The position numbers and the translations under genes were made by a program. The notes under the pieces were generated by a model. The model did no database searches and had not been told where the DNA came from. It saw only the letters and a list, made by a program, of their open reading frames with translations. A stretch of 64,000 bases of DNA from Escherichia phage T5_ev219. This document shows, piece by piece, positions 3,208 through 21,099 of the stretch (its first letter is position 1; every line of letters starts with the position of its first letter). Location: sequence record NC_134263.1, one strand, 5' to 3'.

Positions 3208-4349
3208 AGGAAATCTCCAAATTCATTGCCCAGATCTTTCAGAGTATCAGTAGAGGTCTCAGTTACCTGACCTACACGGTAGGCTGCACCAATCTGGATT
3301 TCTTGTGGAGCAGGCTGTAGAGAAGTAGTATCCAACCAGTTCATAATCCACGGAATAGGGTTTTTGGTGATTACTGGTAAATGACCAGGCCATTCTACAC
3401 CGATGTGCATAAATGCATTACGCCCCACAAAGTATAGGTATTCTTCTAGAAGTTCTGCATTCAAGCCAATCAGACTACGACCTTTGAAAATGAAATGACC
3501 CCATTCAATTTCAGTTTTCAGAGTTTTCAAGAGCTGTGCTGGTGCTTTAGCCACTGCTTCATCTACCAGATCTTTGTCAAACTGCTGGAACATGATCTGG
3601 ATGATTGCTTTAGACATCTGGGTGTGTAGAGCTTCATCTTTAGCGATTAATTGCAGATTTTTAGCAATACCTTGCAGAATATCGTTCTCTGCTAATGCAA
3701 AGGTACATGCAAAGGATGCGTAAAACTGCATTGCTTCCAGACCATAGATCGCAAAGTAAGCGTCTAATAGTTTAGCCTGAGTTTCACGTTTAACTTCAGG
3801 GAACTCAGTTTCTGGATATGTATTGTCGCCACGATGATCGCGTACTGCGATGAAATACTGACCTAACTGGTACAGTTCATCGAATAGTTCAACAGAATCA
3901 GCGATGCGCGCGAATGCTTCTTGGTTTTTGGTTACAGAATCAATAAATTCTGCTGGATCAGTCAGCACATTACGAATAATATTACTATATGCACGGCTAT
4001 GCAGATCTTCGAAGTAGCTCCACTGCTTGAGCATACCTTCCAATTCTGGGCGACTTACAAGTGGCATAATAGCTGCTTCAGGAGCACGACTGATAAAGGA
4101 ATCAGTTTGAGTTTGCCATGCTAAGTTCAGGAGTGTAATTTCCTGAATTTCTCGTGGGAGATTAGGCCATTGTTTCTTATCTGCTTCCAGACTGATTTCA
4201 GTTTCAGTCCAAAATTGAGAGCGTTGCAGAAGTGCCAGACGTTCTAGTTCTGGATGTGCTACACGTACATAATCTGCGATACCGAGAGAATCTCCCAGGA
4301 AAAGGTCAGCGTTAGTATGATCCCAATTCAGGTTTAATAAAGTAGTCAT
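3204..4349 (-). CDS. nrdB: ribonucleotide reductase class Ia beta subunit
   Basis: 381 aa; ferritin-like di-iron radical protein pattern; adjacent to nrdA. Confidence 0.85.
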   Translation of the reverse strand: MTTLLNLNWDHTNADLFLGDSLGIADYVRVAHPELERLALLQRSQFWTETEISLEADKKQWPNLPREIQEITLLNLAWQTQTDSFISRAPEAAIMPLVSRPELEGMLKQWSYFEDLHSRAYSNIIRNVLTDPAEFIDSVTKNQEAFARIADSVELFDELYQLGQYFIAVRDHRGDNTYPETEFPEVKRETQAKLLDAYFAIYGLEAMQFYASFACTFALAENDILQGIAKNLQLIAKDEALHTQMSKAIIQIMFQQFDKDLVDEAVAKAPAQLLKTLKTEIEWGHFIFKGRSLIGLNAELLEEYLYFVGRNAFMHIGVEWPGHLPVITKNPIPWIMNWLDTTSLQPAPQEIQIGAAYRVGQVTETSTDTLKDLGNEFGDFL

Positions 4350-4380
4350 TGATTTTCCTCTTTCTCACTATTTCAGGAAT

Positions 4381-4409
4381 ATTATAGCAAATCTGGTAGT
4401 GATTAGCAA
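4381..4409 (-). promoter_or_regulatory. sigma70-type promoter upstream of nrdB (TTGCTA-17-TATAAT)
   Basis: Minus-strand TTGCTA (4404-4409) and TATAAT (4381-4386). Confidence 0.55.
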
Positions 4410-4426
4410 GTAAAATTTCAAAGAAA

Positions 4427-4448
4427 AAGGAGACCCGAAGATCTCCTT
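4427..4448. terminator. hairpin aaggaga...tctcctt flanked by T/A runs (bidirectional-looking, downstream of nrdA)
   Basis: Inverted repeat 4427-4433 / 4442-4448 with T runs on both strands. Confidence 0.55.
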
Positions 4449-4455
4449 GTTTTTA

Positions 4456-6786
4456 TTATAACTGGCAACCACCAGAAGCACAACCCGCTGCTTCTTCACC
4501 AGCTCCTCCACCATTCGCAGTGTTAAAGTTAGCATAATACCAAGTTTTTATACCGTACTTAACAGCAGTCATGAAATCACGAACTACTACTGGGCCAGGG
4601 ATGATTTCATTCTCGAATTTAGAGTAATCATAATACATCTGGAAACTTGATGACTGATTCAAGAATTTTTGGTAAACGGCGTTCCACTTGATCCACTCAG
4701 TGCGATCAATATCATAGGCCAGTTTATAGCTCATGAGAGTATCCCAATCAGTTGCACCTGGAGCAATTGCAATTACTTTATTCACTGCACTACCCTTGAT
4801 AGATACAATCTTACGAGGTGGTTCAATAGAGTTAGTAACCCCTAACAGAACGGAAGAACTTTCTCCTGGCATCTGCGCAGTCAGAACAGAGTTACGCATA
4901 CCGTATTTCAGAATATCTGCACGCAGAGATTCCCAATCCATTTCTAGACCTACGGATACCAGCTCATCAACAGTTTTCTTATACGTGTCGATTACCAGAG
5001 TTCCTTTAGATGGTTTAGTACGATCGAACCATTCACATGCACCTTGCTCTTTGGCTAGACGTACAGAGGCTTTATGCAGGAAGTAAGACAGTTTTTCAGC
5101 TTCACGATGGATCCAGTTACGTGCTTCAATACCTTCGTAAGCCAGACCTTCTGCTGCCATTGCACCTGCTGCGTTCATAAGGCCAATACCAACGTTACGA
5201 CGTTTCTTAGCTGTGTATTCCATAGTTGGGAACGGATAGTCCTGAATTTCAATGATGGTATCAACGAATTTCAGAAGAATATAGCAAGTCTTTTCCCACT
5301 CAGCCAGAGATTCCATGCGTCCAAGTACAACACCACCTAAGTTACACAGAGATACTTCACCAATATCCTCCGGCTTCATTTGATCAAGTTGTTCTTTCGT
5401 TTTATACAGTTCCGTGATATGATGGAACGGGCGTGTAGGCTGAGTAATTTCAACACAAAGGTTTGTCATACGGATCGGATCAAGGAAGTTACCGTGACGA
5501 TTAGATTCCCCGATGTGGTGAGCATACATACGTCCTGTTTCCATTCGGATACGTAGCCAAGTATCTAGGATTTCTTTTGCAGAGACTTTAGGAGCTGCTG
5601 GAACTGTTTTTCCTTCGTGGTCGATCTTTGTAAGAGATGCCACACGTTTCTCCGCTGCCACATAGATTTCTTCAAATTTAGCCTCGTCATCACTATAAAA
5701 CGCTTCATGAACTTCTGGAGCATAGAAGTATGACATTAGCGTAATATCTTCATTTTTCAGATAACGTTTTAACAAAAGATTGTTGAAGCTCAGAGAATAA
5801 TCCATCTTATCGATTTTATTCTCATCTGTAGCACGTTGCTGCTTAACCTGCATCAATTGAATGATTTCAGGGTCAAAGTATGGATAAGACACTGTAGCAG
5901 AACCACCACGAGTTTGCTGAGTATTGGCCTTTACTGAGCGGTCAATGTGTCGATAATATGGCAGTTTTCCGGAATGCGGGAATGCCCCATTTCGCACCGG
6001 ATCAGCAATTGATCGGCTTTCAAGATGATACCCGATTCCCGCTCTGGCTGCGACCATTTTGAAGACGATGTGCTCGGCTGTGTCGATTGAATCCAATGTG
6101 TCAGTGGAATCCACGAGGCAACAACTAGCAAATCCACGATCACTAGAGCGCAAGCCAACCAATGGCGGCGTAGGAATGTTGATTTTGTGTAGCGACATTG
6201 CGTTGTAGAGGTCGATTGCATCTAGAATTGTCCAATTAGGTTGAGATAACATCGCCATTGCCATACCCATATAGGCGAATTGCGGGGTTTCGTAAATTTC
6301 GCCAGTTGCGATATTACGACGGGAATACTTATCAAAGAATTGTTTCAATCCTCCGCTAGTGAAAAGACGGTCGCGATCATGGTCGATAACCTGATTCAGA
6401 GCTTCAAATTGCTCATCGGTAATCCATGCACTCATGTCTTCCCATGCACCTACACTAACCATATGATCGTGGAAGAAGCGTAGAGAAGGTGGTTCGAAGG
6501 AATCATAAAGGCGTTTACGCATTTGCGCAAGACGTAATTCCTTTGCTGGCACGTCGTATGCTGGATTATCTTTGATAAGACTTTCAGCAGCCTTAATTAA
6601 AGCATCCATCAGAGTGTCGGAATCTACAACCCCTTTAGGCAGAGTTTTTTGAGCAGCCATAGTAATGGCAGACCAACTTACATCAACTGTTTTGCAACCA
6701 TACTCTGCCCAACCATTGAGTTTTTCAGGAGCAAAGTCTTCTACAGTACCGTCACGTTTAATTACTTTTTCAATGCGATGGCTCAT
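4456..6786 (-). CDS. nrdA: ribonucleotide reductase class Ia alpha subunit
   Basis: ORF track 4456-6891; likely true start ATG at 6786 (MSHRIEKVIKRDG ATP-cone) with AGGAAA RBS; C-terminal CASGGC redox tail. Confidence 0.9.
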   Translation of the reverse strand: MSHRIEKVIKRDGTVEDFAPEKLNGWAEYGCKTVDVSWSAITMAAQKTLPKGVVDSDTLMDALIKAAESLIKDNPAYDVPAKELRLAQMRKRLYDSFEPPSLRFFHDHMVSVGAWEDMSAWITDEQFEALNQVIDHDRDRLFTSGGLKQFFDKYSRRNIATGEIYETPQFAYMGMAMAMLSQPNWTILDAIDLYNAMSLHKINIPTPPLVGLRSSDRGFASCCLVDSTDTLDSIDTAEHIVFKMVAARAGIGYHLESRSIADPVRNGAFPHSGKLPYYRHIDRSVKANTQQTRGGSATVSYPYFDPEIIQLMQVKQQRATDENKIDKMDYSLSFNNLLLKRYLKNEDITLMSYFYAPEVHEAFYSDDEAKFEEIYVAAEKRVASLTKIDHEGKTVPAAPKVSAKEILDTWLRIRMETGRMYAHHIGESNRHGNFLDPIRMTNLCVEITQPTRPFHHITELYKTKEQLDQMKPEDIGEVSLCNLGGVVLGRMESLAEWEKTCYILLKFVDTIIEIQDYPFPTMEYTAKKRRNVGIGLMNAAGAMAAEGLAYEGIEARNWIHREAEKLSYFLHKASVRLAKEQGACEWFDRTKPSKGTLVIDTYKKTVDELVSVGLEMDWESLRADILKYGMRNSVLTAQMPGESSSVLLGVTNSIEPPRKIVSIKGSAVNKVIAIAPGATDWDTLMSYKLAYDIDRTEWIKWNAVYQKFLNQSSSFQMYYDYSKFENEIIPGPVVVRDFMTAVKYGIKTWYYANFNTANGGGAGEEAAGCASGGCQL

Positions 6787-6824
6787 TTGGCTTTCCTTTT
6801 TATAGTTATCAGGATTTAAGGAAT

Positions 6825-6853
6825 ATTCTACTTTATTATTGGTCATTAGGCAA
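6825..6853 (-). promoter_or_regulatory. sigma70-type promoter upstream of nrdA (TTGCCT-17-TAGAAT)
   Basis: Minus-strand -35 at 6848-6853, -10 at 6825-6830. Confidence 0.45.
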
Positions 6854-6907
6854 ATAAAATTTTCTGATAGAAAAGGCCCGAGTATTTTCATACCCAGGCC
6901 TTATGTA

Positions 6908-7150
6908 TTACCAGTCTAGCTTTTTAGCTTGTTCAATTACTTTAGCTCTAGCTACTTCTTTTAATAGAATATCTATGGAAGTGCTTAACTCATTATAGTT
7001 GAACGGTTTATTTGGATTTGAGGTTATAATTTTCCACGCTAGGGTTGTCTTAGGACTTTCTTCCCCTTCCTTACGTGTAATCATATTAGCAGCACTCAGT
7101 GAAGTACGATGTATTTTAGTTTTACGGTGTAGATGTACGACGTTTCCCAT
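6908..7150 (-). CDS. hypothetical protein
   Basis: ORF track 6908-7219 trimmed to ATG (MGNVVHL) at 7150 with GGAAGG RBS; avoids overlap with phoH. Confidence 0.4.
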   Translation of the reverse strand: MGNVVHLHRKTKIHRTSLSAANMITRKEGEESPKTTLAWKIITSNPNKPFNYNELSTSIDILLKEVARAKVIEQAKKLDW

Positions 7151-7151
7151 A

Positions 7152-7904
7152 TTACACCTTCCCCATGTCTTTAAAAATATCGTAGAATGCTTTAGACTCA
7201 ACAGAACGAACGTTATCAATTAATTCGATCATTGAGAACGGAGCATTTTCATATTTCTCATAGACTTCCATAAGGAGTGCTAGACCTGAGTCACCTTTAA
7301 TGTCTTTCTGAGCTATATCTCCGCAGATAATTAAACGGCAGTCTTGTCCTACACGAGTTAGGAGACAAATCATTGCCTCAACGGAAATATTCTGAGCTTC
7401 ATCGACAATTACATAGGAGTTGTTGAAAGTTCTGCCACGAGCATGTTCTACAGCCAAAAATTTAATTTTCTGACGTTCGACATATCCCTTATAGGCATGA
7501 TCACCGATGGCCCATTTCATACCATCAGCTATTGGCTCTAACCAAGGCTCTAGCTTTTCCGCTAGATCACCAGGAAGCATACCAAGAGACTTACCTAGAG
7601 GTTCATTAGGACGTACGAGGATCACTTGCTCAATATCTGAGTGAATGTCTACGAGTTCCTGAGCTGCAAGAACAGACGGAATAAAGGTTTTACCTGTACC
7701 TGGCTCACCAATACCCACAGTCACTGTGTTGTTCTTGATCATATTGATATATGATTTTTGCTCGCGGTTTTTACCTACTAGGGATTTAGCAACTGGGTTA
7801 GCGTAATCATTAGAAAAATCAGCCTGAATTACGTTATTCTCATACTTGTTGCCACGCTTTCTTGAACCATTGCGGTTCTCTCTTTTTTGACGTGCTTTTC
7901 CCAT
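7152..7904 (-). CDS. phoH: PhoH-like ATPase
   Basis: Walker A GEPGTGKT; ORF track start trimmed to ATG at 7904 with TAGGAG RBS. Confidence 0.85.
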   Translation of the reverse strand: MGKARQKRENRNGSRKRGNKYENNVIQADFSNDYANPVAKSLVGKNREQKSYINMIKNNTVTVGIGEPGTGKTFIPSVLAAQELVDIHSDIEQVILVRPNEPLGKSLGMLPGDLAEKLEPWLEPIADGMKWAIGDHAYKGYVERQKIKFLAVEHARGRTFNNSYVIVDEAQNISVEAMICLLTRVGQDCRLIICGDIAQKDIKGDSGLALLMEVYEKYENAPFSMIELIDNVRSVESKAFYDIFKDMGKV

Positions 7905-7977
7905 AAATAACACTCCTATAGTGTACTTCGCTAACAGAGGATCAACAAAAAGATCTTGTTTATCAACTTACAAATAT

Positions 7978-8006
7978 ATTATACCAATATATACAGTAAA
8001 AAGCAA
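7978..8006 (-). promoter_or_regulatory. sigma70-type early promoter for the minus-strand phoH-nrd operon (TTGCTT-17-TATAAT)
   Basis: Minus-strand TTGCTT (8001-8006), TATAAT (7978-7983). Confidence 0.6.
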
Positions 8007-8198
8007 CTACAATTTTAAATAAGCCTATGATATTGCATTTAAATAAAAAATTTGCTTGCTTTTAACGTGAGATGTGTGATACTAGATAATCATTTTATAT
8101 CGCGTGCACGAGTGCGTGATTATACAATTTTTAATAGAGATTGGCAAATAAAATTTTTTGACTCAGATCATGTTACAGAACTTTATAGTAAAATATTG

Positions 8199-8227
8199 TT
8201 GACATCCGCCCTCGAATGAGTTATAAT
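8199..8227 (+). promoter_or_regulatory. consensus sigma70 promoter for nrdD (TTGACA-17-TATAAT)
   Basis: Perfect -35 and -10 hexamers with 17-bp spacer, 30 nt upstream of nrdD ATG. Confidence 0.7.
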
Positions 8228-8256
8228 AGTAGTCTTAGTTAGAGAAGGAGAGTATA

Positions 8257-10131
8257 ATGAATCGCAATGAAGAACTAAAGTATAAAGAAATGCAGGCGTT
8301 AATTAGAAACTGCAAAGAGATTATCGAAGGGTCAGCAGATGAAGAGCTGCTGTTTAATAATGCCAATAAACCCTCAGAACGTTTCCCTACACAAAGGGAT
8401 ATGCTTGCAGGTGAATTGAGTAAGTATCTGATTCTAGAAGAAATGCCAATTCAGATTCGAAATGCTCATATGATTGGGGATATTCATTTCCATGATGCTG
8501 ATTATGCTGCATTAGGTATGACTAACTGTTGTCTGGTAGCTTTGGAAGATATGTTGAAGAATGGTATGAAGGTTGGTAATGCTGAAATTAGCACTCCAAA
8601 CTCTATCACTACTGCGGCGGCTATTACTGCTCAGATTATCACTCAGGTTAGCTCCCACCAGTATGGTGGTACTTCTGTAGATCGTCTTGATGAAGTATTG
8701 GCTCCTTATGTTCGTAAGTCTTATGATAAGAATCATGCGTTTGCAAAACGTTGGACTAAGGATGAAGCCAAAGCATCAGTAATGGCTACTGAGATGACTG
8801 AAAAAGAAGTCTATGATGCTTGTCAGGGTCTAGAGTATGAAATCAATACGATGTTCAACTCTAATGGTCAGAGTCCATTTATTACCTTTGGTTTTGGTCT
8901 AGGAACTTCTTGGGAAGCACGTCTAGTACAGAAAGCAATACTGAAAGTACGTATGGATGGTTTAGGTATCAATAAACGTACAGCTATCTTTCCGAAACTG
9001 GTGTTTGTTCTGCGTGATGGCGTAAATATGAAGCCAGGAGATGTTAATTATGACGTCAAGAAGTTAGCTATGAAATGTACTGCTGAACGTATGTATCCAG
9101 ATTATATCAGCTATGATAAGGTTGTGGAAGTTACTGGGGACTATAAAGTTTCTATGGGCTGCCGTTCATTCCTAGCTGCTACAGAAGATGGTGAAACTGC
9201 CGGTCGTAATAACTTAGGTGTTGTTTCTGTAAACTTGCCTAGAATTGCTATCGAAGCTGAAGGAAATATTGACCTATTCTTTGATTTGCTTGAGCTACGT
9301 GTAGATACAGCATTAAAAGCGTTGGAGTGGAGAGTTGATCGCTTAAAATACATTCAAGCTAAAGCTGCACCCATCCTCTATATGTCAGGAGCCTTTGGGT
9401 TACGCTTGGAGCCTGATGAATATGTATTCGATCATTTCTATAACCGTGCTTCTGTATCTCTAGGGTATATTGGTTGCCATGAAATGCTACAGTTCATGTT
9501 TGGCAAAGATGTAGACACAATGTCCGAGACCTGCATCAAGTTTGTTCAGCGTGTATTGCAGTACATGCGGGATAGAGTCGATCAGAAGAAGGAAGAAACT
9601 AAGTTAGGTTATAGCCTGTATGCTACACCATCAGAATCCCTATGTGATCGTTTTTGTCGTCTAGACCGTGAATATTTCCCGGAGCATGAAGATATTCTGT
9701 CTAAAGGATACTACACTAACTCGCACCACCTTGATGTAGAACGCAAAGTTGCTCCCAATGTGAAATTTGATTATGAATCTAATTTTACTCCGATTGCTTC
9801 TGGTGGGTGCATTTCCTATGTAGAACTACCAGATATGAAACGATTCCCAGATGCACTGGAATGGGTTATTAATTATGCTGCTAGTAAAGTTCATTACTTC
9901 GGTATTAATACTCCAGTGGATTCTTGTAGTAAATGTGGATTCTTAGGTGAAACAATAGCATCCGAAGATGGATTTAAGTGCCCTATCTGTGGTAATCATG
10001 ACCCCGAAACTCTTGAAGTAACTCGTCGAGTTTGTGGGTATCTTGGAAATCCGGGTGCTCGTCCATTTAACCCCGGCAAACAGCACGAGGTGATGGGCAG
10101 AGTGAAACATCAGGATATTCGAGCTAAATAA
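8257..10131 (+). CDS. nrdD: anaerobic ribonucleoside-triphosphate reductase (class III)
   Basis: 624 aa; C-terminal zinc-ribbon cysteines and glycyl-radical motif RVCGYLG. Confidence 0.9.
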   Translation: MNRNEELKYKEMQALIRNCKEIIEGSADEELLFNNANKPSERFPTQRDMLAGELSKYLILEEMPIQIRNAHMIGDIHFHDADYAALGMTNCCLVALEDMLKNGMKVGNAEISTPNSITTAAAITAQIITQVSSHQYGGTSVDRLDEVLAPYVRKSYDKNHAFAKRWTKDEAKASVMATEMTEKEVYDACQGLEYEINTMFNSNGQSPFITFGFGLGTSWEARLVQKAILKVRMDGLGINKRTAIFPKLVFVLRDGVNMKPGDVNYDVKKLAMKCTAERMYPDYISYDKVVEVTGDYKVSMGCRSFLAATEDGETAGRNNLGVVSVNLPRIAIEAEGNIDLFFDLLELRVDTALKALEWRVDRLKYIQAKAAPILYMSGAFGLRLEPDEYVFDHFYNRASVSLGYIGCHEMLQFMFGKDVDTMSETCIKFVQRVLQYMRDRVDQKKEETKLGYSLYATPSESLCDRFCRLDREYFPEHEDILSKGYYTNSHHLDVERKVAPNVKFDYESNFTPIASGGCISYVELPDMKRFPDALEWVINYAASKVHYFGINTPVDSCSKCGFLGETIASEDGFKCPICGNHDPETLEVTRRVCGYLGNPGARPFNPGKQHEVMGRVKHQDIRAK

Positions 10132-10138
10132 GCTAATC

Positions 10139-10171
10139 AGCCGGGTTGCTAGTCGACCTGGCTTTTATTTT
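10139..10171 (+). terminator. rho-independent terminator after nrdD
   Basis: Hairpin agccgggt / acctggct followed by TTTTATTTT. Confidence 0.6.
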
Positions 10172-10173
10172 AT

Positions 10174-10202
10174 TTGCTTTCAGCCAAAAATTTATATATA
10201 AT
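10174..10202 (+). promoter_or_regulatory. T5-type early promoter (TTGCTT-17-TATAAT) with conserved leader ending in GAGGAG
   Basis: Hexamers at 10174-10179 and 10197-10202. Confidence 0.7.
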
Positions 10203-10230
10203 AGATTTATAAATTTGAGAGGAGAAAGCT

Positions 10231-10512
10231 ATGAGCGAGTTGCTTCCTAAAGTAGATGTCTCCCATCTTGGAGAGCCTAGTGAAGAACGTAAGGCTCTAG
10301 ATTGGTTGGGTGGATTTGATTATCGTCGTGTTGTTGCAACATGGAATGTTAAGAAAGTTAAGAAGTTTCGGGTACATTATGTAGGTAAAGACAAGTGGCT
10401 CTGGATTGATTATGAAGAATCAAAGGGGTCTACTAAGGCTGTGAAAATTTATCGTATGTATGGGTATTATTATGCTCACTGTGACAAGAATGAATTTACA
10501 GTACAGAACTAA
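10231..10512 (+). CDS. hypothetical protein
   Basis: ORF track; strong GAGGAG RBS. Confidence 0.55.
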   Translation: MSELLPKVDVSHLGEPSEERKALDWLGGFDYRRVVATWNVKKVKKFRVHYVGKDKWLWIDYEESKGSTKAVKIYRMYGYYYAHCDKNEFTVQN

Positions 10513-10521
10513 GGAACAAGA

Positions 10522-10725
10522 ATGAAAAACGTAAAACATCTTAAATATCGCTTAATTTACAACGGACGTATGGAAACAGAAGACCTGGCCCAGTTAGCTA
10601 TTAATTCTAATGAGGTTACAGTGCGTGCGCTGGCAATTGAAAAGTTGCGTGCTTCTTATGAAAATCGTGTTATGGAACTAGAGGAGAAACTTTATGGACT
10701 TCTTGAATCAGAATCTAAAAAGTAA
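10522..10725 (+). CDS. hypothetical protein
   Basis: ORF track; AAGGAA RBS. Confidence 0.5.
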   Translation: MKNVKHLKYRLIYNGRMETEDLAQLAINSNEVTVRALAIEKLRASYENRVMELEEKLYGLLESESKK

Positions 10726-10888
10726 TCCAGAAAACATACTTATTGAGCAATGGAACTTTGGTTATAATGCTGGTGTAGCTACTTGTATTGCTAGATTGGA
10801 TATGCTTATTAAGCAAGAAAAGGTGCGTCCGGAGGAAGCAATTTTACTCCGAAATATTATCGAAGGATTTAAGCAAGGAATCGTATAG
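10694..10888 (+). CDS. hypothetical protein
   Basis: ORF track; GAGGAG RBS; stop overlaps next start. Confidence 0.45.
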   Translation: MDFLNQNLKSNPENILIEQWNFGYNAGVATCIARLDMLIKQEKVRPEEAILLRNIIEGFKQGIV

Positions 10889-11712
10889 TGCGTAGATTAA
10901 TTATTATTAGCGGTGCGGGTTTGAGTGTTGAAAGTGGTGTACGAGCTTTTCGTACTGATACTGCTAGTGGTAAAGCATTGTGGGATGATTATGATCTAGA
11001 AGAAGTATGTAATATTCATGCCTTTCGTGGTAATTTTTACCATAAAACCCATATGTTTTACAACAAGCGACGTGAAGAGCTAGAAACTGTTGAACCTAAC
11101 CTTGCGCATCTTCGTATTGGTGAGTGGTATAAGAAATATCCGGGTCAAGTAGTAAATTTGACTACTAATGTTGATGACCTTATTGAGCGTGCTGGTGTTC
11201 CTCATAATGATATTCTCCACATTCATGGATACTTAAAGGAGGTTGTTGTAGCTGATAGCTACAATAGTAGTAATAAACGAATTATTGATGTTGGGTATAA
11301 CTCTATTGACCCAGATGATTATAAATGGGCTAAACCTAATGTAATCTTCTTTGGTGAGCATGCTCCAGCGTACGCAGAAATGTACAATATTTTTGATGGT
11401 ATTACTAGTCAAGATATGATCGTTGTAGTTGGTTGCTCTAATCAAGTAATTAATTTCTACTGGGAATTATTTCCTGTTCTTAATTTGACTGCTGCTAAAC
11501 TTATGGTTGTTAACTACTACGATAGTGCCCTAGCGGCAGAACCAGGCTATCAAGGTATGACTCGTAGTGATATGTACCAGTTGGAAGAACGGGGTATTCC
11601 TTACTGGAGTAAAGGTGCGGTAGATGCTTTCAGTGATCCTGGTTTTATCGCTCGTATAGAAGCTCATCTAGAGGGTAGACCTTATATGCAGGGGGAACAG
11701 ACATGTCCATAG
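10888..11712 (+). CDS. Sir2-like (sirtuin-family) NAD-binding protein lacking the Zn-ribbon module
   Basis: GTG start; sirtuin motifs GAGLSVESGVRAFR, TTNVDDLIERAG, HIHG, VIFFGE, VVVGCSN; no CxxC pairs. Confidence 0.6.
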   Translation: MRRLIIISGAGLSVESGVRAFRTDTASGKALWDDYDLEEVCNIHAFRGNFYHKTHMFYNKRREELETVEPNLAHLRIGEWYKKYPGQVVNLTTNVDDLIERAGVPHNDILHIHGYLKEVVVADSYNSSNKRIIDVGYNSIDPDDYKWAKPNVIFFGEHAPAYAEMYNIFDGITSQDMIVVVGCSNQVINFYWELFPVLNLTAAKLMVVNYYDSALAAEPGYQGMTRSDMYQLEERGIPYWSKGAVDAFSDPGFIARIEAHLEGRPYMQGEQTCP

Positions 11713-11885
11713 TTAAATCTGTGTATACACATCCAGATGATATATTTGTATGGGCGGATGGTAGTTGGTGCTATCGATGTGAGTTATGGGAAATGGACTA
11801 TAAATCTGAGGACTATGGTGTCATATATGTTGATACGGTTGAGTATGATACGTTCTTAGAAAGGGACAAAAATGGAAATAAGTAA
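11703..11885 (+). CDS. hypothetical small acidic protein
   Basis: ORF track; overlaps neighbours in operon-like packing. Confidence 0.4.
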   Translation: MSIVKSVYTHPDDIFVWADGSWCYRCELWEMDYKSEDYGVIYVDTVEYDTFLERDKNGNK

Positions 11886-12378
11886 TACTCCAATTATTTT
11901 TCTAGACATTGATGGGGTGCTTAATTCTAGCATCTCCCACCATCATGCACCTGATGATGAAAAGATTTTCTTTGGAAGTGACTGGGTTTTTAAACCGCTT
12001 CTCAAGGCTTTTCAGGACTTTATTCGTCCTTCTCCAATAATGATTGTTGGGGTATCTTCATGGTTCTCTGTCAGGAATGAGATGGAGAACGTTCAGATTA
12101 TGACCGGATTAGATCTTATCGATCGTTTTCTTGGTACAACGGATTTTACTGGTGGTGGGCTATCTAGGGGTAATTCTGTTCTTCGCTTCGTTGAAAAGCA
12201 TAAGCTCAAACATTGGTGTGTGCTGGATGATGCTGGTGCTATGATGTATCAGTATCCAACGGTTATAGTCAACGGTAGAACCGGAATAAATCTTCAAGAT
12301 TTAAGAGCTGTTAGCTATATGTTAGAATTTAGTCCAGATCTTGAAATGTGTAAAGCCCTACAAAAATTTAAGGTGTAA
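11872..12378 (+). CDS. HAD-superfamily phosphatase (5'-nucleotidase-like)
   Basis: N-terminal HAD motif I FLDIDGVLN. Confidence 0.55.
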   Translation: MEISNTPIIFLDIDGVLNSSISHHHAPDDEKIFFGSDWVFKPLLKAFQDFIRPSPIMIVGVSSWFSVRNEMENVQIMTGLDLIDRFLGTTDFTGGGLSRGNSVLRFVEKHKLKHWCVLDDAGAMMYQYPTVIVNGRTGINLQDLRAVSYMLEFSPDLEMCKALQKFKV

Positions 12379-12380
12379 AT

Positions 12381-12809
12381 ATGTTCAATAATATACTCTC
12401 TAAAGAGGCTAACCCGATATTGGTTAATTTTTGGCGTACTCTTCCAGCCAACCTGTACAATGAGGCTATTAATGATCTGAAAATATGGTGTGAGAATAAT
12501 GAAATCTCCTTTGCTTTTAAGGGTGAGATTGAAGAAGCTCCCTGTATTGGTTTAATTGTGCAGGTAGAGGATGGTCTGGAAGAGATTGTCGGCTGGAAAG
12601 AGTTGGATGAAATGGGGTTGGTTTTTGCATTAAACTATAAGCTATTTATGCCCAATAAACACCGTATTGTTGTTAATTATAAAACCAGTGAATCTCCTGG
12701 TTTTCAAGTTAATGAACACTACGGTTGGTCTTACTCACCGGAAGAAGTAAATGATGGTATCCAAAAACTTCGTCGTTTTGGTTATCAAATTCCCGGTTTA
12801 ACTGCCTAA
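12381..12809 (+). CDS. hypothetical protein, paralog A of tandem pair
   Basis: Shares W.EL..GL..ALN..LF.P ... R.G..IPGL pattern with 12819-13211. Confidence 0.55.
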   Translation: MFNNILSKEANPILVNFWRTLPANLYNEAINDLKIWCENNEISFAFKGEIEEAPCIGLIVQVEDGLEEIVGWKELDEMGLVFALNYKLFMPNKHRIVVNYKTSESPGFQVNEHYGWSYSPEEVNDGIQKLRRFGYQIPGLTA

Positions 12810-12818
12810 GGGGGCACA

Positions 12819-13211
12819 ATGGAACAAGTATATTGGCGTCAGATTGATCCTAGTTTGGTGAAGCGTGCTGAGAAGCTGCTACAACGTTGGTTGGGGGTAA
12901 GACAAGCCTCCTTCACTTTTCCGGAGCAGCAAATAGACGATCCCTGTGTTGGTGTTTTTCTATCAGGCTACGCTGGGGAATGGGAATTGGATTGGAATGA
13001 ATTGTCTGCTATAGGTCTAATTGTTGCCCTAAATTTCTCTTTGTTCCATCCACGTGGTTTGGCCATATGTCGTGTGCCTGATGACGGTTGTTCGCCCTAT
13101 CTTTTACAGGTGGAAGATGATATTTGGGAGTACACTCCAGATATTCTCAAAGAAGCCAAAGAACAATTAAACCGTGTTGGGATCTATGTTCCGGGGCTAA
13201 ATGATAAATGA
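12819..13211 (+). CDS. hypothetical protein, paralog B of tandem pair
   Basis: Paralog of 12381-12809; good RBS AAGGGGG. Confidence 0.55.
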   Translation: MEQVYWRQIDPSLVKRAEKLLQRWLGVRQASFTFPEQQIDDPCVGVFLSGYAGEWELDWNELSAIGLIVALNFSLFHPRGLAICRVPDDGCSPYLLQVEDDIWEYTPDILKEAKEQLNRVGIYVPGLNDK

Positions 13212-13234
13212 TTTTTATTAGTTGACCTCTGATT

Positions 13235-13260
13235 ACCGAGTCATTTTGGCTCGGTTTTCT
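13235..13260 (+). terminator. rho-independent terminator
   Basis: Hairpin accgag...ctcggt followed by TTTTCT. Confidence 0.5.
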
Positions 13261-13302
13261 CTATGCTCAAAGACACTGATAGCACCATCCGGAAAATTTT
13301 AC

Positions 13303-13331
13303 TTGCAGGATGCCCAAAATCTTGATATAAT
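13303..13331 (+). promoter_or_regulatory. sigma70-type promoter (TTGCAG-17-TATAAT)
   Basis: Hexamers at 13303-13308 and 13326-13331; about 500 nt upstream of next ORF. Confidence 0.5.
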
Positions 13332-13828
13332 ATTTATATTGAATTGAGAGACATTAGTAAAAATTGATTTTGCTAATTTTTCTTGTTTACAATCCGCGAT
13401 ACGGAACAGTTAGGCTGCCCCATTAAGGGTTGTTTTAACTATTACTAGTGTTTATATTGCATTAGTTAATCTTCAATTAAGTGATCTGTGTACCCTGAAT
13501 TCGGAAAGGTAAATCCAAACCGTGCATATTTAGCTCGTTATATAGGCAGAGTTTTATATGGGGGTGCGAACGAAAAGAGCAGCGAATGGCGGCACGTACA
13601 GTAGTCACCTACCAATAGGATAGTGAGGACAAATAGAATCGGCTTAGCGGCCAATGACCTAGGTTCTATTCTGTATATGAGCGAAGAGAGCACAGCACTG
13701 AGATATGATAACTTATTCATATTGTTTGATGATAATTGATGTTTACGTAAATAGTAGTAATAGTTGTTCTATTCTTTCTGAATAGTCCTAAAGAAAAGAT
13801 TTCGATTAACCAACACAGGAGTATTGTT

Positions 13829-16618
13829 GTGTTTTCTATCCTCCAAGGTCACGCCGGATTTTCTCGTGATTTAGCAACAGGTATTTGGCGAGAAATCAAA
13901 GCGGAAGATTATACCTTTGCCAAGCGATTCTCGAAAGAGCATCCAGAAGGTAAACCAGCTTCTATGCCCTTCAAATTTGATGTAATAGAAGAGCACGACC
14001 CACAAAGCCTTGCCGAAATGTTACCCCTTATGAGACGTTTAACGTCTGACCCTCATATCGTTGCGGTACGAGGTCGATGTCTTGCACCTAAAAATAATGT
14101 GCGACGTAAGAAAGGTAACTTTAATGTATCTAATCCTAGTAATATTATTGCTATGGACGTGGATGGTATCCTAGATACCGGTGGGTATGACAAATTTAAT
14201 CTTGTTGGTATGGCCCGCCACATTATTAAGATGTTGAATAGTATTAGTGAGGACATGTTCCCTCTTGATGCAGGCTTTATAGCTCATGCATCGTCTTCGG
14301 CTGGGCTTAAACCAGGTATCCGAATGCACTTAATGCTAGAATCTAACGTCAAGGTAACTCAGGGTCAGCTAAAGTTCTTATTTACATCTATCAACGATAG
14401 TAGTAAGCAAAAATTTGGTTTTGATATTGCCGACCTAGCTTATTATTCATCTGTCCAGCTCCACTATTTTGCCGACCCCTTATTTAGCGATGGTATTGTT
14501 GATCCGTTTAAAGCGGAGAGTAAGCCACGTCTGGTGTATGTTAAAGGTTCGAAAGTAAATTTGCCCAATAATCTAGTTGACTATGAAACAACTAGAGGGG
14601 AGTTTAAGGAAGAGTTTTATTCTTTACTTGATCAAATTAAAGGCAAAAAGATTGCTTCTGATAAAGTAGAAGAAACCATCAGCGAGTTAGAAGAGGCTGA
14701 TGATGGAGTGTATTTGCGTATTATCCCCAAACTATACCATAGAGCATTAGAGGATGGTGTTGATTTTGCATGGCTAGAACGTGAGATTAAACCAGCTTTA
14801 TCCGAATATATTGCAACTAAAGATAACAGTCGTAATATTCAAGATTACTTTAATAACGGTCGTAAGCAGGCTCTCAAAGCGTTTGTTAATAATTCTAAAC
14901 GTGAGATTCCATTAAATCTGAAAGGTGTTCCACTTAAGAAATTAGAAGTGGATTCTCCACCAGAAGTTCCATACCTGAAGATTAACATTGTGCCCCCAAA
15001 AGGCCATATAACATTTGTTAAGGCAAGTCTTGGTACGGGTAAAACTACGGCAGTAACTAAATGGCTGGACGCAGGTGTTCTTCCGGGCAACTTTTTAGCA
15101 GTTACAAATACTAGAGCACTGGTATCTTCAAATGCCAAGAAATTTAGTGCAGGACAATACGATAAGTCTGTAGATATGCTCAACTTTAAACGTGGGGCTA
15201 TTGATCGTATGTCCACAACTATTCACTCTTTGCATAAGTTCAAAAGTTTTATTGGTCAAATAGACACCATTTTTATTGACGAATGTGACGCTGTAATGAA
15301 TGACCTATTATTCGCCCCTGTTGTTAAACAACGTCGCGAGTGTATTCAAGTTCTACGTGACATCCTCATGACAGCTAAAACTGTAATCTTATCCGATGGT
15401 GATATTAGTGCTGAGACTATTGAAGCATATGGTTCTCTAATTGATTTTGATAAACCGGTTGCATTTTATAATCATCATCGTAAGATGCTGTCAAAAGCTC
15501 ATGCTTATGAGTTCCCTGATGAGTCCAGTATTTGGGTTGCACTTCAAACATCTCTAGAGATGGGTGAAAAATCTATTCTAGTATCTGATTGTGGCCCTGA
15601 TGAGCTGAATGAGAAGGGTATGGCACTACGTCGTAATACTGGTGCATTAGTTAAGGAAATCCATTCAAACTCCACATCTGATGTGGATATTAGACGTATT
15701 CTGGATTACACAACTAATGAGCTAATTGATCAACAAATTGATTGCTTATTATGTAGTCCATCCGTAACGAGTGGAGTTGACTTCAACTACTTCGATAACG
15801 TATTTGTTATTACGAGAACTAGTAATCAAGCGCCAAACATGCGTTTTCAAGCAATCAGGCGCGACCGTGGTGCTCAGAATATCTATTATTTTATTGATAA
15901 ATCCACTAGTGGGTTCTCCGCAGGTTCTGAACAATATAATATTGATGAAGGTTGGCTGGAGTTAGCACAGCAATTATACGCACGTCGCAGGGAGCTGGAA
16001 TCTAGGAACTATACTAGTACTTTACGTTATTACTTGCTTGATCAAGGTGCAACTATTGATATTTTCAGCGAAAGCTGGGGAACTATTGAAGGTGCTGGTA
16101 AAGAGTACACAGAAGAGCGAATCAAAGCTATTCTACATTCAACTCCTGATTATTGTGCCCCACGTCATGCGGATGCGTATGAAGCTAAGCTACTTCTTGT
16201 TCGCTATTATCATCTTGAGTCTATTAAAGATGTAACAGTTGAGCATGTTGAACAATATATCAAAGATAAGCCAAATGATCGAGCTGCATTCTTCCATAAG
16301 ATGCACGAGATGTTCTGGGAGGATATTAAGAAGTGTTCAAATGTGACCATTAAACCATTCATAGAGGCTCTGAAAGGTAAGAAAAAGGACTTCTTCCTTA
16401 AAACAGGCCAGAGTGCGAACCCAAAATATGCAAGAATGTACCTCGGTATGATGGGTATTGGTAAGGATATGAACACTGAAAATATCGTAGACTGGTATAG
16501 AACCTATTGTAAAATCGAGTGTATGCCAATTCCTTATAAGTTTATGACTGATGAGGAGAAACATATGCATGATGAAGCAATGTCAGAACTAGGTGCTAGA
16601 AATGACAGTGAAGAATAA
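13829..16618 (+). CDS. replication-initiator-type helicase (origin-binding-protein-like SF2 ATPase with primase-like N-terminal domain)
   Basis: GTG start with AGGAG RBS; Walker A GTGKT, Walker B IFIDECD; N-terminal IAMDVDG acidic motif; 929 aa. Confidence 0.65.
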   Translation: MFSILQGHAGFSRDLATGIWREIKAEDYTFAKRFSKEHPEGKPASMPFKFDVIEEHDPQSLAEMLPLMRRLTSDPHIVAVRGRCLAPKNNVRRKKGNFNVSNPSNIIAMDVDGILDTGGYDKFNLVGMARHIIKMLNSISEDMFPLDAGFIAHASSSAGLKPGIRMHLMLESNVKVTQGQLKFLFTSINDSSKQKFGFDIADLAYYSSVQLHYFADPLFSDGIVDPFKAESKPRLVYVKGSKVNLPNNLVDYETTRGEFKEEFYSLLDQIKGKKIASDKVEETISELEEADDGVYLRIIPKLYHRALEDGVDFAWLEREIKPALSEYIATKDNSRNIQDYFNNGRKQALKAFVNNSKREIPLNLKGVPLKKLEVDSPPEVPYLKINIVPPKGHITFVKASLGTGKTTAVTKWLDAGVLPGNFLAVTNTRALVSSNAKKFSAGQYDKSVDMLNFKRGAIDRMSTTIHSLHKFKSFIGQIDTIFIDECDAVMNDLLFAPVVKQRRECIQVLRDILMTAKTVILSDGDISAETIEAYGSLIDFDKPVAFYNHHRKMLSKAHAYEFPDESSIWVALQTSLEMGEKSILVSDCGPDELNEKGMALRRNTGALVKEIHSNSTSDVDIRRILDYTTNELIDQQIDCLLCSPSVTSGVDFNYFDNVFVITRTSNQAPNMRFQAIRRDRGAQNIYYFIDKSTSGFSAGSEQYNIDEGWLELAQQLYARRRELESRNYTSTLRYYLLDQGATIDIFSESWGTIEGAGKEYTEERIKAILHSTPDYCAPRHADAYEAKLLLVRYYHLESIKDVTVEHVEQYIKDKPNDRAAFFHKMHEMFWEDIKKCSNVTIKPFIEALKGKKKDFFLKTGQSANPKYARMYLGMMGIGKDMNTENIVDWYRTYCKIECMPIPYKFMTDEEKHMHDEAMSELGARNDSEE

Positions 16619-19145: not shown

Positions 19146-20117
19146 ATGACTAATGTAAAAGAATTTATTAAACGCTGTCAAGAAGCATATTATCAGGGTA
19201 TGTCTTTAATCTCTGATGAGGAGTATGATTGCCTGGTAAAACGCTTCCCGTTAGAAGAAGAGATCGGGCCTAGGGGTGATATTCCACATCTGTATCGTAT
19301 GTATTCTTTACAGAAAGTTTACTATAACCGTGGAGATAAATCACCATTCAATCCTTTAGGTCAGGTGGAAACCGATAAGTTAGATGGTTGTGCAATTTCT
19401 CTGCTATATATTAATGGCGAATTTGTTCAAGCATTAACCCGTGGTAATGGTATTCTGGGGAATGATGTCACAAGCAACGTAAGATTGCTGAACATTCCTA
19501 AAAAGATTTCCCAAAAAGTACCTACTCAAATCACTGGTGAAGTTCTAATTACAAAAGAAGTAGAAAATAAACGTAACTTTGCCTCTGGTGCTATTAACCT
19601 CAAAGATAGTGATGCTTTCGTACAACGTATTGGAGAAGGTGGTTTAATCTTCGTTGCATACGGTATCCAGTGTTCTGCTGAATCTGTAGGTATTACAGAA
19701 GCATATTTAAAAGATATGCTTTGGCTGGAGAATGAGAACTTCTTAACAGTTGTTAATGTGCGTTCCTTCTTTAAATGGATTCCGACGGACGGTAAAGTTG
19801 TTCGTATTAATGACAACAACAAATTCTTCCGTGAAGGCTGGACTAATAAATTCCCTCGTGGAGCATTCGCCATTAAAGAGGATGAAGAAGGCGAGATTAC
19901 AACTCTTACTAAAGTTGAATGGCAGGTAGGGGCTTCTGGTAAAGTAACTCCAGTCGGTTATTTTGAACCAGTAATTATTGATGATGCTACAATTGTTAAA
20001 GCGACTCTTAATAACGTTGATTATATTAACTCTCTTGATCTAGAGATCGGTTGCCAGATTCGAGTGATTCGTGCTGGTGGTGTAATCCCGTGCATAGTAG
20101 AGCGAGTATACGATTAA
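19146..20117 (+). CDS. ligA: NAD-dependent DNA ligase, N-terminal subunit (adenylation + OB domains)
   Basis: KxDG adenylation motif (ETDKLDGCAIS); 323 aa. Confidence 0.8.
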   Translation: MTNVKEFIKRCQEAYYQGMSLISDEEYDCLVKRFPLEEEIGPRGDIPHLYRMYSLQKVYYNRGDKSPFNPLGQVETDKLDGCAISLLYINGEFVQALTRGNGILGNDVTSNVRLLNIPKKISQKVPTQITGEVLITKEVENKRNFASGAINLKDSDAFVQRIGEGGLIFVAYGIQCSAESVGITEAYLKDMLWLENENFLTVVNVRSFFKWIPTDGKVVRINDNNKFFREGWTNKFPRGAFAIKEDEEGEITTLTKVEWQVGASGKVTPVGYFEPVIIDDATIVKATLNNVDYINSLDLEIGCQIRVIRAGGVIPCIVERVYD

Positions 20118-20319: not shown

Positions 20320-21099
20320 ATGAAAATCGAAATTCCAACACAATGTCCCTCTTGTGGTTCTAAGCTAGATCTTGTCAACGGACAATTATTCTGTCGTAAT
20401 AAGTCCAACTGTCCAGCGCAATCAAGTAAGTTAATTGAGAACTTCTGTTCAAAAATGAAGTTAAAGGGTTTTGGCCCAAAAACTATTGAGAAGCTGGAGC
20501 TGACGAAGATTTCAGAACTATTTTACCTAACCGAAGAAGATTTGGTTAGAGCCGTGGGTAGCAAGGTTGCCGCTAAGTTAATTAGCGAATTAAATACTAA
20601 AGTTCGCGGAGACATTGACTTTGGTTCAGTTCTCGGTTCTTTAGGAATCCCTCTAATCGGAGAGGTTGCAGCAAAGAAATTATCCCAAAATTGCACTAGC
20701 TTCCACGATGTGAAGGCTGACGGCAAGGCTGGAGAAAACTATAAAGCCTGGCTAAATTCCCCACAGGGCAAGGATGTTATCGAATTACCGTGGAAATTCA
20801 CAACTGGTATTAAAGGTGCTAAAGCTGAGGTCATCATCACTGATGGTCTAGTAGCCCAACCAAACGGAATAACGGTATGTATTACCGGATCTTTGCAAGA
20901 TTTTGCAAATAGAACGGATGCAACAAACTATTTAGAAGGTCTAGGATATACGGTTAAGAAATCCGTTACCAAAGACGTCAAATACCTAATCTGTGAGGAT
21001 GAATCTAAGCGTTCTTCCTCATCTTATAAGAAAGCCGAAACGAATGGGATAGAAATCCTGTCGATTAAAGAACTATTGGAGAAAAATAATAATGTCTAA
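20320..21099 (+). CDS. ligB: NAD-dependent DNA ligase, C-terminal subunit (Zn-finger, HhH, BRCT-like)
   Basis: Four-Cys zinc finger CPSCG...CRNKSNC; ORF track TTG 20317 adjusted to ATG 20320 with AAGGAAG RBS. Confidence 0.8.
   Translation: MKIEIPTQCPSCGSKLDLVNGQLFCRNKSNCPAQSSKLIENFCSKMKLKGFGPKTIEKLELTKISELFYLTEEDLVRAVGSKVAAKLISELNTKVRGDIDFGSVLGSLGIPLIGEVAAKKLSQNCTSFHDVKADGKAGENYKAWLNSPQGKDVIELPWKFTTGIKGAKAEVIITDGLVAQPNGITVCITGSLQDFANRTDATNYLEGLGYTVKKSVTKDVKYLICEDESKRSSSSYKKAETNGIEILSIKELLEKNNNV

Follow-up and report, generated by a model that had tools for sequence, protein, structure and literature searches.

A sirtuin lacking zinc ligands and a HAD_SAK_2 phosphatase as the persistent pair of an early accessory operon in T5-like phages, with a possible role in NAD-dependent RNA repair

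Sirtuin genes of T5-like phages have been described before. Iyer et al. 2022 (PMC9503650, section 3.7.3, configuration 3) reported a neighborhood that pairs a Sir2 gene with a SAK-type HAD gene, typified by the T5-like Escherichia phage SP15, and predicted for such phage sirtuins a KptA/Tpt1-like removal of 2'-phosphates from RNA. Skliros et al. 2016 (PMC5107563) described phage Sir2/CobB proteins without zinc ligands, named T5 as a carrier of a homolog and favored deacetylation of host Acs by the Vibrio-phage sirtuin; according to their citation of the T5 genome paper, the Sir2-like gene of T5 has been annotated since that paper. Here, we analyze positions 10,231 to 13,211 of a 64,000-nucleotide stretch (the window) from Escherichia phage T5_ev219 (NC_134263.1), a T5-like phage (Demerecviridae), in which a sirtuin gene and a gene for a HAD-superfamily phosphatase lie within a block of eight open reading frames (ORFs). 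The sequence feature itself, namely the zinc loss, the Sir2 and SAK-HAD pair and its RNA-repair reading, is already known. Just three leads are fresh: the persistence of the HAD–Sir2 pair through rearrangement, the linkage of the HAD gene to NARP1 and the tie between DUF7415 and genes of nucleotide metabolism.

The SP15-type neighborhood is structurally no different from the locus studied here: both carry this gene pair, the virus group is the same and SP15 is closely related to the window phage (94.6% identity in the DUF7415 protein). That paper (PMC9503650) is silent on the DUF7415 paralogs, the small ORFs, the inverted gene order and the HAD–NARP1 linkage described below. The Sir2/CobB proteins of Vibrio phages phiSt2/KVP40 (PMC5107563) belong to the wider phage sirtuin group (about 40% identity, with 76% of the protein covered) but have no Pfam-recognizable HAD, RNA ligase or cREC neighbor. 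By sequence comparison, the window sirtuin is a member of the phage clade of Iyer et al. 2022, in its neighborhood with a SAK-type HAD (the SP15 type). The block of eight ORFs is a conserved early accessory operon of T5-like phages, the functional core of which is the sirtuin and HAD enzyme pair.

The sirtuin and the HAD phosphatase

The sirtuin ORF matched the Pfam SIR2 profile (PF02146) with an E value of 9e-24 and 84.8 bits against a cut-off of 24, its residues 9–187 covering positions 1–178 of the 180 in the profile. A preliminary description of this DNA, made from the sequence alone, had quoted four sirtuin motifs and the absence of a Cys4 set, and both observations were borne out. GAGLSVESGVRAFR lies at residues 9–22, TTNVDDLIERAG at 92–103, HIHG at 111–114 and VIFFGE at 152–157, and none of the three Cys residues of the protein falls between the HG (H113-G114) and FGE (F154-E157) motifs. 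Across 120 homologs, this segment contained no Cys in 56, one in 46 and two in 3, and it was not located by pattern in 15; a Cys4 set was absent among these homologs, with a maximum of two Cys where the segment was located. The small β-module that normally holds the zinc is still predicted, with strands at 114–122, 131–134 and 147–152 and predicted local distance difference test (pLDDT) values of 89–96, and therefore only the metal ligands have been lost. The earlier wording of a sirtuin without a zinc ribbon is thus right for the ligands but not for the module itself.

An AlphaFold2 model built from an alignment of 52 homologs reached a pLDDT of 90.8 and a predicted template modeling (pTM) score of 0.88. 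The closest solved proteins by sequence were E. coli CobB (1s5p, E 2.4e-17), the archaeal Af1/Af2 Sir2 proteins and SIRT5, and the top structural matches of the model were CobB (template modeling (TM) score of 0.85 normalized to CobB, 1s5p), Af1-Sir2 and SIRT5. Besides the fold, the phage sirtuin shares with CobB and SIRT5 the GAGxS, FR, NxD, HG, FGE and GxS motifs and the YxxR pair. GAGxS, F21-R22, F57-Y58-x-x-R61-R62, N94-x-D96, H113-G114, F154-F155-x-E157, G182-x-S184 and N209 were invariant in the 52 aligned clade members, as were T93 and V95. The class III YxxR motif (FYxxRR pattern) was present in all 120 homologs, and F57-Y58-N-K-R61-R62 of the window protein aligned with FYNARR of CobB. 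In SIRT5 and CobB, the YxxR pair binds succinyl or malonyl carboxylates. Unlike these two enzymes, the phage sirtuin lacks the zinc Cys residues, carries a Thr that in its clade always replaces the canonical Gln of QNxD, reads V-I-N-F where the acyl-lysine loop of CobB reads V-Y-P and has a 4-residue insertion in the cofactor-binding loop; the identity is about 24%. The NCBIfam models of CobB type were scored below cut-off (97.3 bits against 243 and 87.2 against 320), and CobB orthology was rejected on these equivalog and subfamily scores. Because CobB and SIRT5 are the best matches and the NCBIfam CobB scores are far below their cut-offs, the protein is, as judged from its sequence, a zinc-ligand–free and derived relative of class III sirtuins with catalytic residues predicted to be intact, and not a CobB ortholog. 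The phage-specific clade descends from class III (CobB/SIRT5-like) sirtuins, having kept the NAD pocket, the catalytic His and YxxR. It is acidic throughout (isoelectric point (pI) 4.6–6.05, net charge −6 to −20) and was found in 989 phage records; among the matches seen, all were phage-encoded.

The preliminary description had also placed the protein closer to Sir2 NADase/ADP-ribosyltransferase domains than to deacetylases, a placement that the CobB, Af1-Sir2 and SIRT5 matches and the invariant YxxR do not support. Defense SIR2 NADases (ThsA, DSR1/2 and SIR2-HerA) and SirTM share with the phage sirtuin the Rossmann core of the Sir2 superfamily, and these groups likewise lack a zinc ribbon. 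However, the phage sirtuin differs from them in carrying YxxR and in having no sensor, SLOG, HerA or Macro partner. A PADLOC scan of all eight ORFs with E values up to 0.1 matched no defense-system model, and no defense Sir2 or SirTM structure was present in the top 50 fold matches of the sirtuin model; a defense-type Sir2 identity was rejected on these two results. Pfam identified no Macro domain in any ORF of the operon, and a Macro partner is also absent for this sirtuin clade according to Iyer et al. (PMC9503650). Homology and structure searches that could have revealed a Zn-containing deacetylase or a non-sirtuin protein instead returned a true sirtuin with the zinc ligands absent.

The presence of a HAD-family phosphatase with the motif FLDIDGVLN, proposed earlier, was confirmed by a nearly full-length match to the Pfam HAD_SAK_2 profile (PF18143; E 1.8e-20, 74.2 bits against a cut-off of 27.5, profile positions 1–138 of 139). 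Residues of motifs I–IV (D12, D14, S62/S63, R99 and D119/D120) were invariant against homologs with 32–37% identity, and because they are kept at just this level of identity, the enzyme looks catalytically competent. It is a small member of the “Swiss-army-knife” (SAK) family of RNA-repair HAD phosphatases. A sequence search of the PDB with the HAD protein returned no solved relatives. The family is also affected by a labeling error. The PHROG family phrog_18062, labeled “Sir2 (NAD-dependent deacetylase),” in fact represents the C-terminal half of the HAD protein (E 1.2e-57). Many RefSeq genomes of T5-like phages (e.g., NC_048818.1 and NC_047859.1) list “Sir2 (x2)” with the HAD gene named as a deacetylase, because this mislabel has been propagated.

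Gene neighborhoods in T5-like and other phages

Six Demerecviridae-like lineages were scored for the presence of nrdD, HAD, Sir2 and DUF7415 and for gene order (Table 1). HAD and Sir2 occurred together in five of the six, in two gene orders and despite turnover of the flanking genes, and the pair was kept where nrdD and DUF7415 were absent. In the window, the two genes are separated by a single ORF of 60 amino acids (aa), orf5. DUF7415, among T5-like loci, was seen only with nrdD present, and most of the divergent lineages with both Sir2 and HAD lack it. HAD and Sir2 therefore form a persistent core, which provides moderate evidence, not proof, of functional coupling; the evidence is just moderate because all six lineages are relatives.

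Table 1. Presence and order of the operon genes in six Demerecviridae-like lineages
Lineage	nrdD	HAD	Sir2	DUF7415	Gene order
Window, Bf23, JLBYU40	+	+	+	two	orf1-3, Sir2, orf5, HAD, DUFa, DUFb
Sugarlandvirus (L010)	+	-	+	two	Sir2, orf5-like, DUFa, DUFb
L015	+	+	+	none	HAD upstream of Sir2
L016	+	+	+	none detected, contig ends soon after Sir2	HAD upstream of Sir2
L021/L022	-	+	+	none	HAD, small ORF, Sir2, small ORF, obp
L025	-	+	+	none	HAD, small ORF, Sir2, small ORF, obp

Members of the sirtuin clade were also found in independent contexts, with 38–59% identity to the window protein in the region matched (56–59% for FFH2 and KB57). In Vequintavirus FFH2, genes for an Rnl1-type RNA ligase, a cREC (cyclic-phosphate-processing receiver) protein and Sir2 share one transcription unit, with an AAA_33 kinase gene adjacent on the opposite strand. 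Mydovirus KB57 has the order metallophosphoesterase, RNA ligase, cREC, AAA_33 kinase and Sir2, the kinase gene being inside the transcription unit, and a calcineurin-like metallophosphoesterase is near the sirtuin cassette in both phages. In the jumbo phage SP27, Sir2 is followed by a Nudt16-like Nudix gene and then cREC, and a gene for a PIN-PhoH fusion comes one ORF later. No annotated KptA was present in the FFH2, KB57 and SP27 loci. All three neighborhood types of Iyer et al. 2022 were thus reproduced independently. The KB57 cassette is additionally flanked by a divergent NARP1-like pair (NAMPT-like and Prs-like; locus 1–1995), and a MazG-like pyrophosphohydrolase and a NADAR gene (locus 13029–13535) lie downstream of it; this region is an island of NAD/ADP-ribose and RNA-repair genes.

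The contexts of the HAD gene are mixed across phages, comprising Sir2, NARP1 and td/rnlA. Distant homologs are located near RNA ligase 1 (rnlA) and beside td and nrdA.1 in Aeh1, and another is near the gp56 dCTPase in PM2. HAD_SAK_2 homologs with 37–43% identity to the window HAD lie directly upstream of Prs-like and NAPRTase-like genes in Serratia phage ChuuTotoro (4-bp overlap; locus 6001–9217) and in two related metagenomic contigs. This gene pair bears the signature of NARP1 (Adps and Namat), a pathway that uses ADP-ribose and nicotinamide to rebuild NAD+ (10.1101/2024.02.11.579819). In some NARP1 operons, a Macro-domain phosphatase for ADP-ribose-1''-phosphate (ADPR-1''-phosphate) is also encoded and defeats aRES defense, and a HAD phosphatase is nowhere mentioned in the preprint describing them (Osterman et al. 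2026, 10.64898/2026.01.28.702374). The HAD homolog occupies the accessory-phosphatase position in the ChuuTotoro-like operon and is a possible non-Macro analog of Adpp, the phosphatase of NARP1-AP, although Adpp is a Macro-domain protein and not a HAD and T5-like phages lack NARP1. A sirtuin was absent from the examined 40-kb region around the ChuuTotoro NARP1 operon, and therefore the HAD can work without a sirtuin; it may be an ADP-ribose-phosphate phosphatase. The HAD–NARP1 linkage was confined to one small Vequintavirinae lineage, and no NARP genes are annotated in positions 1–90000 of Bf23, the T5-like parts examined. The linkage gives only limited support to the idea of an NAD/ADP-ribose module.

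RNA repair weighed against other roles

In Vequintavirinae, the ligase, kinase and cyclic-phosphodiesterase genes around the sirtuin mirror the fungal and plant tRNA ligase pathway, which leaves a 2'-phosphate that Tpt1 must remove. Because no KptA is annotated beside the ligase, kinase and cREC set in the phages described above, the sirtuin occupies the slot expected for the 2'-phosphotransferase. In sirtuin chemistry, a substrate oxygen attacks C1' of NAD and the His-activated 2'-OH of the ribose attacks next, which parallels the two steps of Tpt1; we extend this parallel to the phage clade by inference. The likeness to Tpt1/KptA would consist in the proposed NAD+-dependent removal of a 2'-phosphate via an ADP-ribosylated intermediate, with attack by the ribose 2''-OH, and in the position of the clade where Tpt1 is expected, beside ligase, kinase and cyclic-phosphodiesterase genes. 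In contrast to the ART fold of Tpt1/KptA, the phage proteins are acidic Rossmann sirtuins, and their activity is a predicted one. In yeast, the Tpt1 by-product is processed by Cpd1 and then by Poa1, roles that the cREC, Nudix and HAD partners found across lineages would fit well. As these partners resemble Cpd1 and Poa1, the HAD may act on phospho-ADP-ribose and not on RNA.

We tentatively favor a model of RNA repair for the sirtuin and HAD, while holding it to be somewhat short of probable. Through ADP-ribosyl transfer, and at the expense of NAD+, the sirtuin would strip a macromolecule of an anionic group, which would be, after Iyer et al. 2022, the RNA 2'-phosphate left by metal-independent RNases. 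With chemistry of the Tpt1/KptA kind, the products set free would be nicotinamide and ADP-ribose 1'',2''-cyclic phosphate. The HAD would then remove a terminal phosphate, located either on the RNA end or on the phospho-ADP-ribose by-product. As RNA ligase genes are absent from T5-like phages, a host enzyme would have to carry out the sealing, if any. The phosphate could be bound by the invariant Y/R/R cluster. We infer the substrate and the order of steps in this model, which is backed by the identity, integrity, conservation and linkage of both enzymes and by the RNA-repair neighborhoods of the clade in other phages. The location of HAD homologs near the Aeh1 RNA ligase 1 and in the NARP1 operon agrees with a phosphatase whose substrate is ADP-ribose-phosphate or an RNA end. 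That the sirtuin replaces Tpt1/KptA while the HAD_SAK_2 protein serves as the phosphatase for ADP-ribose-phosphate or RNA ends, feeding NARP1 in other phages, appears unlikely to us.

Several points weigh against RNA repair. Sugarlandvirus retains the sirtuin without the HAD, and no recognizable RNA-repair partner lies by the sirtuin in phage 7-11, the phAPEC8-like phage Schickermooser or a KVP40-like Vibrio phage. Homologs of RNA ligase, cREC and polynucleotide kinase are absent from the window, and none are annotated in Bf23 positions 1–90000; a tblastn search of the window with RNA ligase, cREC, kinase, metallophosphoesterase, Nudix and PhoH queries matched only PhoH, which is the known phoH gene. 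The acidity of the clade is unusual for an enzyme of RNA ends, everything required for lysine deacylation is retained and the nearest relatives are deacylases. Additionally, the function of cREC is itself predicted, which makes the argument partly circular. Sirtuins are not known to act on RNA 2'-phosphates, and literature searches turned up no experimental work on this clade or on T5-family or phage sirtuins in RNA repair.

In one alternative, the sirtuin works as a conventional NAD-dependent deacylase of lysine residues (deacetylase or desuccinylase/demalonylase) and resets host or phage protein acylation early in infection, for example by reactivating acetyl-CoA synthetase (Skliros et al.), with the HAD unrelated or only loosely related. 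This is a strong rival, which we hold to be only a little less likely than RNA repair. It would account for CobB, Af1-Sir2 and SIRT5 as the top sequence and fold matches, for the YxxR pair in every homolog and for the intact catalytic His, FR and FGE motifs; an acidic protein also suits a protein-directed enzyme, and PMC5107563 argues for this role in the related Vibrio-phage sirtuin, which was reported to be expressed during infection. However, the zinc ligands are gone, the QNxD Gln and the V-Y-P loop are altered and the 87–97 bits obtained lie far below all CobB equivalog cut-offs (243–320). The neighbors in three other phage groups are RNA-end and ADP-ribose genes with no protein-modification genes among them, and the lasting linkage to a phosphatase is left unexplained by deacylation.

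The preliminary description had inferred an NAD/ADP-ribose module for host takeover or for countering NAD-depleting defenses. In such a module, the HAD would act on molecules of the ADP-ribose-1''-phosphate type arising from aRES-like defenses, and the sirtuin would ADP-ribosylate or hydrolyze a target. The coupling of sirtuin and HAD is supported and the NAD theme is plausible given the HAD in the NARP1 operon, but the DUF7415 paralogs do not belong to it. A role against NAD-depleting defenses has no direct support, as the sirtuin consumes NAD and no NARP genes are annotated in the Bf23 region, and the published comparative-genomic reading is RNA repair rather than takeover or NAD defense (PMC9503650). 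The HAD homologs upstream of the NARP1 pair, with the 4-bp overlap in ChuuTotoro, speak for this module, as do the recruitment of an ADPR-1''-phosphate phosphatase by NARP1 operons, though of Macro type, and the NARP1-like pair and NADAR gene flanking the KB57 sirtuin cassette. Still, the HAD–NARP1 linkage is limited to its one lineage, the aRES paper includes no HAD phosphatase, similarity to defense SIR2 NADases was not detected by PADLOC or among the top 50 folds and the Macro partner expected of a SirTM system is missing, so that we regard this role as very unlikely. Finally, the operon may represent no single module but a mosaic of accessory early genes, in which the HAD dephosphorylates (deoxy)nucleotides, the DUF7415 proteins serve dNTP-metabolism enzymes such as NrdD as adaptors or regulators and the sirtuin is independent. 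The location of the operon, after nrdD and next to phoH, nrdA, nrdB, frd and thy, agrees with this mosaic, as does the restriction of DUF7415 to T5-like loci with nrdD. So do the fusions that join DUF7415 with thymidylate kinase or with a MazZ-type dATP/dGTP pyrophosphohydrolase, its position in T4-like Klebsiella phages, where it separates nrdD from nrdG, and the HAD homologs beside td and nrdA.1 (Aeh1) and near the gp56 dCTPase (PM2). Nevertheless, HAD and Sir2 remain paired without nrdD, the HAD fits the RNA-repair HAD_SAK_2 profile over its full length and T4-like early regions are dense mosaics in which adjacency is weak evidence; we consider a mosaic of unconnected genes quite unlikely.

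If the prediction of RNA repair is true, sirtuin chemistry would extend from acyl-lysine to RNA phosphates, and T5-like phages would heal RNA damaged by host nucleases besides carrying replacement tRNAs. A sirtuin that replaces Tpt1 would be the first to act on a nucleic-acid phosphate and would tie RNA repair to the NAD arms race, including aRES and ADPR-1''P, whereas a plain deacylase would be an example of a virus rewriting host protein acylation. The clade is present in about 1000 sequenced phages, many of which are therapy candidates.

Operon layout and remaining genes

The eight ORFs, all on the plus strand, were confirmed at the coordinates first assigned to them and lie between two terminator-like hairpins (Table 2). 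Their tight packing was likewise upheld, with gaps of 2–9 nt and overlaps of 1–32 nt; the start codon of the sirtuin, GTG at 10888, shares sequence with the TAG stop of orf3 just before it (TAG/GTG overlap 10886–10890). A Shine-Dalgarno sequence precedes orf1 and follows the promoter-like site. The −35 box of this putative promoter matches at three of six positions, and the site, unlisted by an automated promoter scan, was read directly from the sequence. The curated annotation of Bf23 has a terminator, a predicted early promoter and a closing terminator at equivalent positions, and the flanking genes are 98–100% identical to Bf23 at the protein level. The stretch 10131–13400 matched 527 phage records at the DNA level, the top match being Escherichia phage VEc33 (94.9%), and an Rfam scan of 9900–14000 gave no match.

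Table 2. Features of the operon and of the flanking region, in window coordinates
Feature	Coordinates	Strand	Evidence
phoH	7155-7904	-	protein similarity to Bf23
nrdD, upstream of operon	8257-10131		protein similarity to Bf23
Terminator-like hairpin ending the nrdD transcript	10139-10163	+	10-bp stem, 6 GC pairs, then T run
Putative sigma-70 early promoter	10174-10202	+	TTGCTT, 17-nt spacer, perfect TATAAT at 10197-10202
orf1, 93 aa, basic (pI 9.1)	10231-10512	+	phrog_7953, E 8.5e-65
orf2, 67 aa	10522-10725	+	phrog_5236, E 1.3e-46
orf3, 64 aa, stop overlaps sirtuin start	10694-10888	+	phrog_5827, E 1.5e-30
Phage-clade sirtuin, 274 aa, acidic (pI 5.2), zinc ligands lost	10888-11712	+	Pfam SIR2 and predicted fold
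orf5, 60 aa, acidic, W-x-DG-x-WC motif	11703-11885	+	phrog_5116, E 8e-29
HAD-superfamily phosphatase, 168 aa, HAD_SAK_2 family	11872-12378	+	Pfam PF18143
DUF7415 paralog a, 142 aa, two DUF7415 repeats, acidic	12381-12809	+	Pfam PF24187, E 5.6e-33
DUF7415 paralog b, 130 aa, two repeats, acidic, confident predicted α/β fold without solved relative	12819-13211	+	
Terminator-like hairpin closing the operon	13235-13255	+	9-bp stem, then T-rich tail
Origin-binding protein gene, downstream of operon	13829-16618		protein similarity to Bf23
NAD-dependent DNA ligase, split (ligA and ligB)	19146-20114 and 20320-21096		protein similarity to Bf23

The small ORFs recognized in the preliminary description are present, but they number four and not three. 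They match only PHROG families without assigned function and are not NAD enzymes. For orf1, no Pfam, NCBIfam or PADLOC match was obtained, and a homolog is located upstream of the HAD gene in lineage L016 (E 5e-14); orf2 is limited to close T5-like relatives. Homologs of orf5 lie directly 3' of the sirtuin gene in Sugarlandvirus (E 2e-10; unannotated in Klebsiella phage IME260, locus 4443–4574) and in the unrelated podovirus 7-11 (E 3.6e-5; locus 7737–7949). Pairwise searches with the small ORFs that flank Sir2 in other lineages identified no common family except orf5, which, as a recurrent 3' neighbor of the sirtuin in three phage groups, may be a partner or regulator of it.

The two DUF7415 proteins were correctly recognized earlier as a tandem paralog pair, with about 30% identity (29% in one alignment) and E values from 1e-14 to 1e-16. 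Their scores of 113.4 and 105.7 bits exceed the cut-off of 27, two stretches per protein match the 53-aa profile and a PDB search with this profile gave a best E value of about 1. An exhaustive profile search identified 161 cluster representatives. The widely conserved part is a single module of about 55 aa that also occurs standalone or fused, the recognizable fusion partners being the two enzymes named above. Standalone copies include the gene between nrdD and nrdG, an unannotated small ORF in T4-like Klebsiella phages (KP1, 4001–4207 of the examined locus), and one directly after rnlA in Aeh1 (Aeh1p318 locus, 6296–6529). Judging from these sequence associations, the module may be an adaptor for phage nucleotide-metabolism enzymes. 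The DUF7415 genes of the operon are variable passengers, tied elsewhere to deoxynucleotide-metabolism genes, and are not NAD enzymes. A suggestion that DUF7415 is the cREC domain was rejected, as the Pfam cREC_REC profile matches other proteins. Some GenBank records name the paralogs “putative exonuclease,” “tail tube protein” or “tail assembly protein” (JLBYU40 locus 3759–4589); profile and fold comparisons of the paralogs gave no support to the exonuclease or tail names.

Among the flanking genes, the NAD-dependent ligase reported earlier for the same phage was found as two ORFs about 205 bp apart, and the same split is present in Bf23. In the gap between the operon and the origin-binding protein gene (13256–13828, about 570 bp), there is no long ORF and repeats are weak; a repeat scan of 13200–13840 found nothing beyond weak two-copy matches. 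Because the equivalent gap of JLBYU40 contains an HNH endonuclease gene, this gap may be an insertion site for homing endonucleases. Finally, a gene for a PhoH-like ATPase adjoins the Sir2/HAD unit in divergent orientation in every Demerecviridae-like locus examined, and a functional link of these PhoH genes, the SP27 fusion included, to RNA processing is possible.

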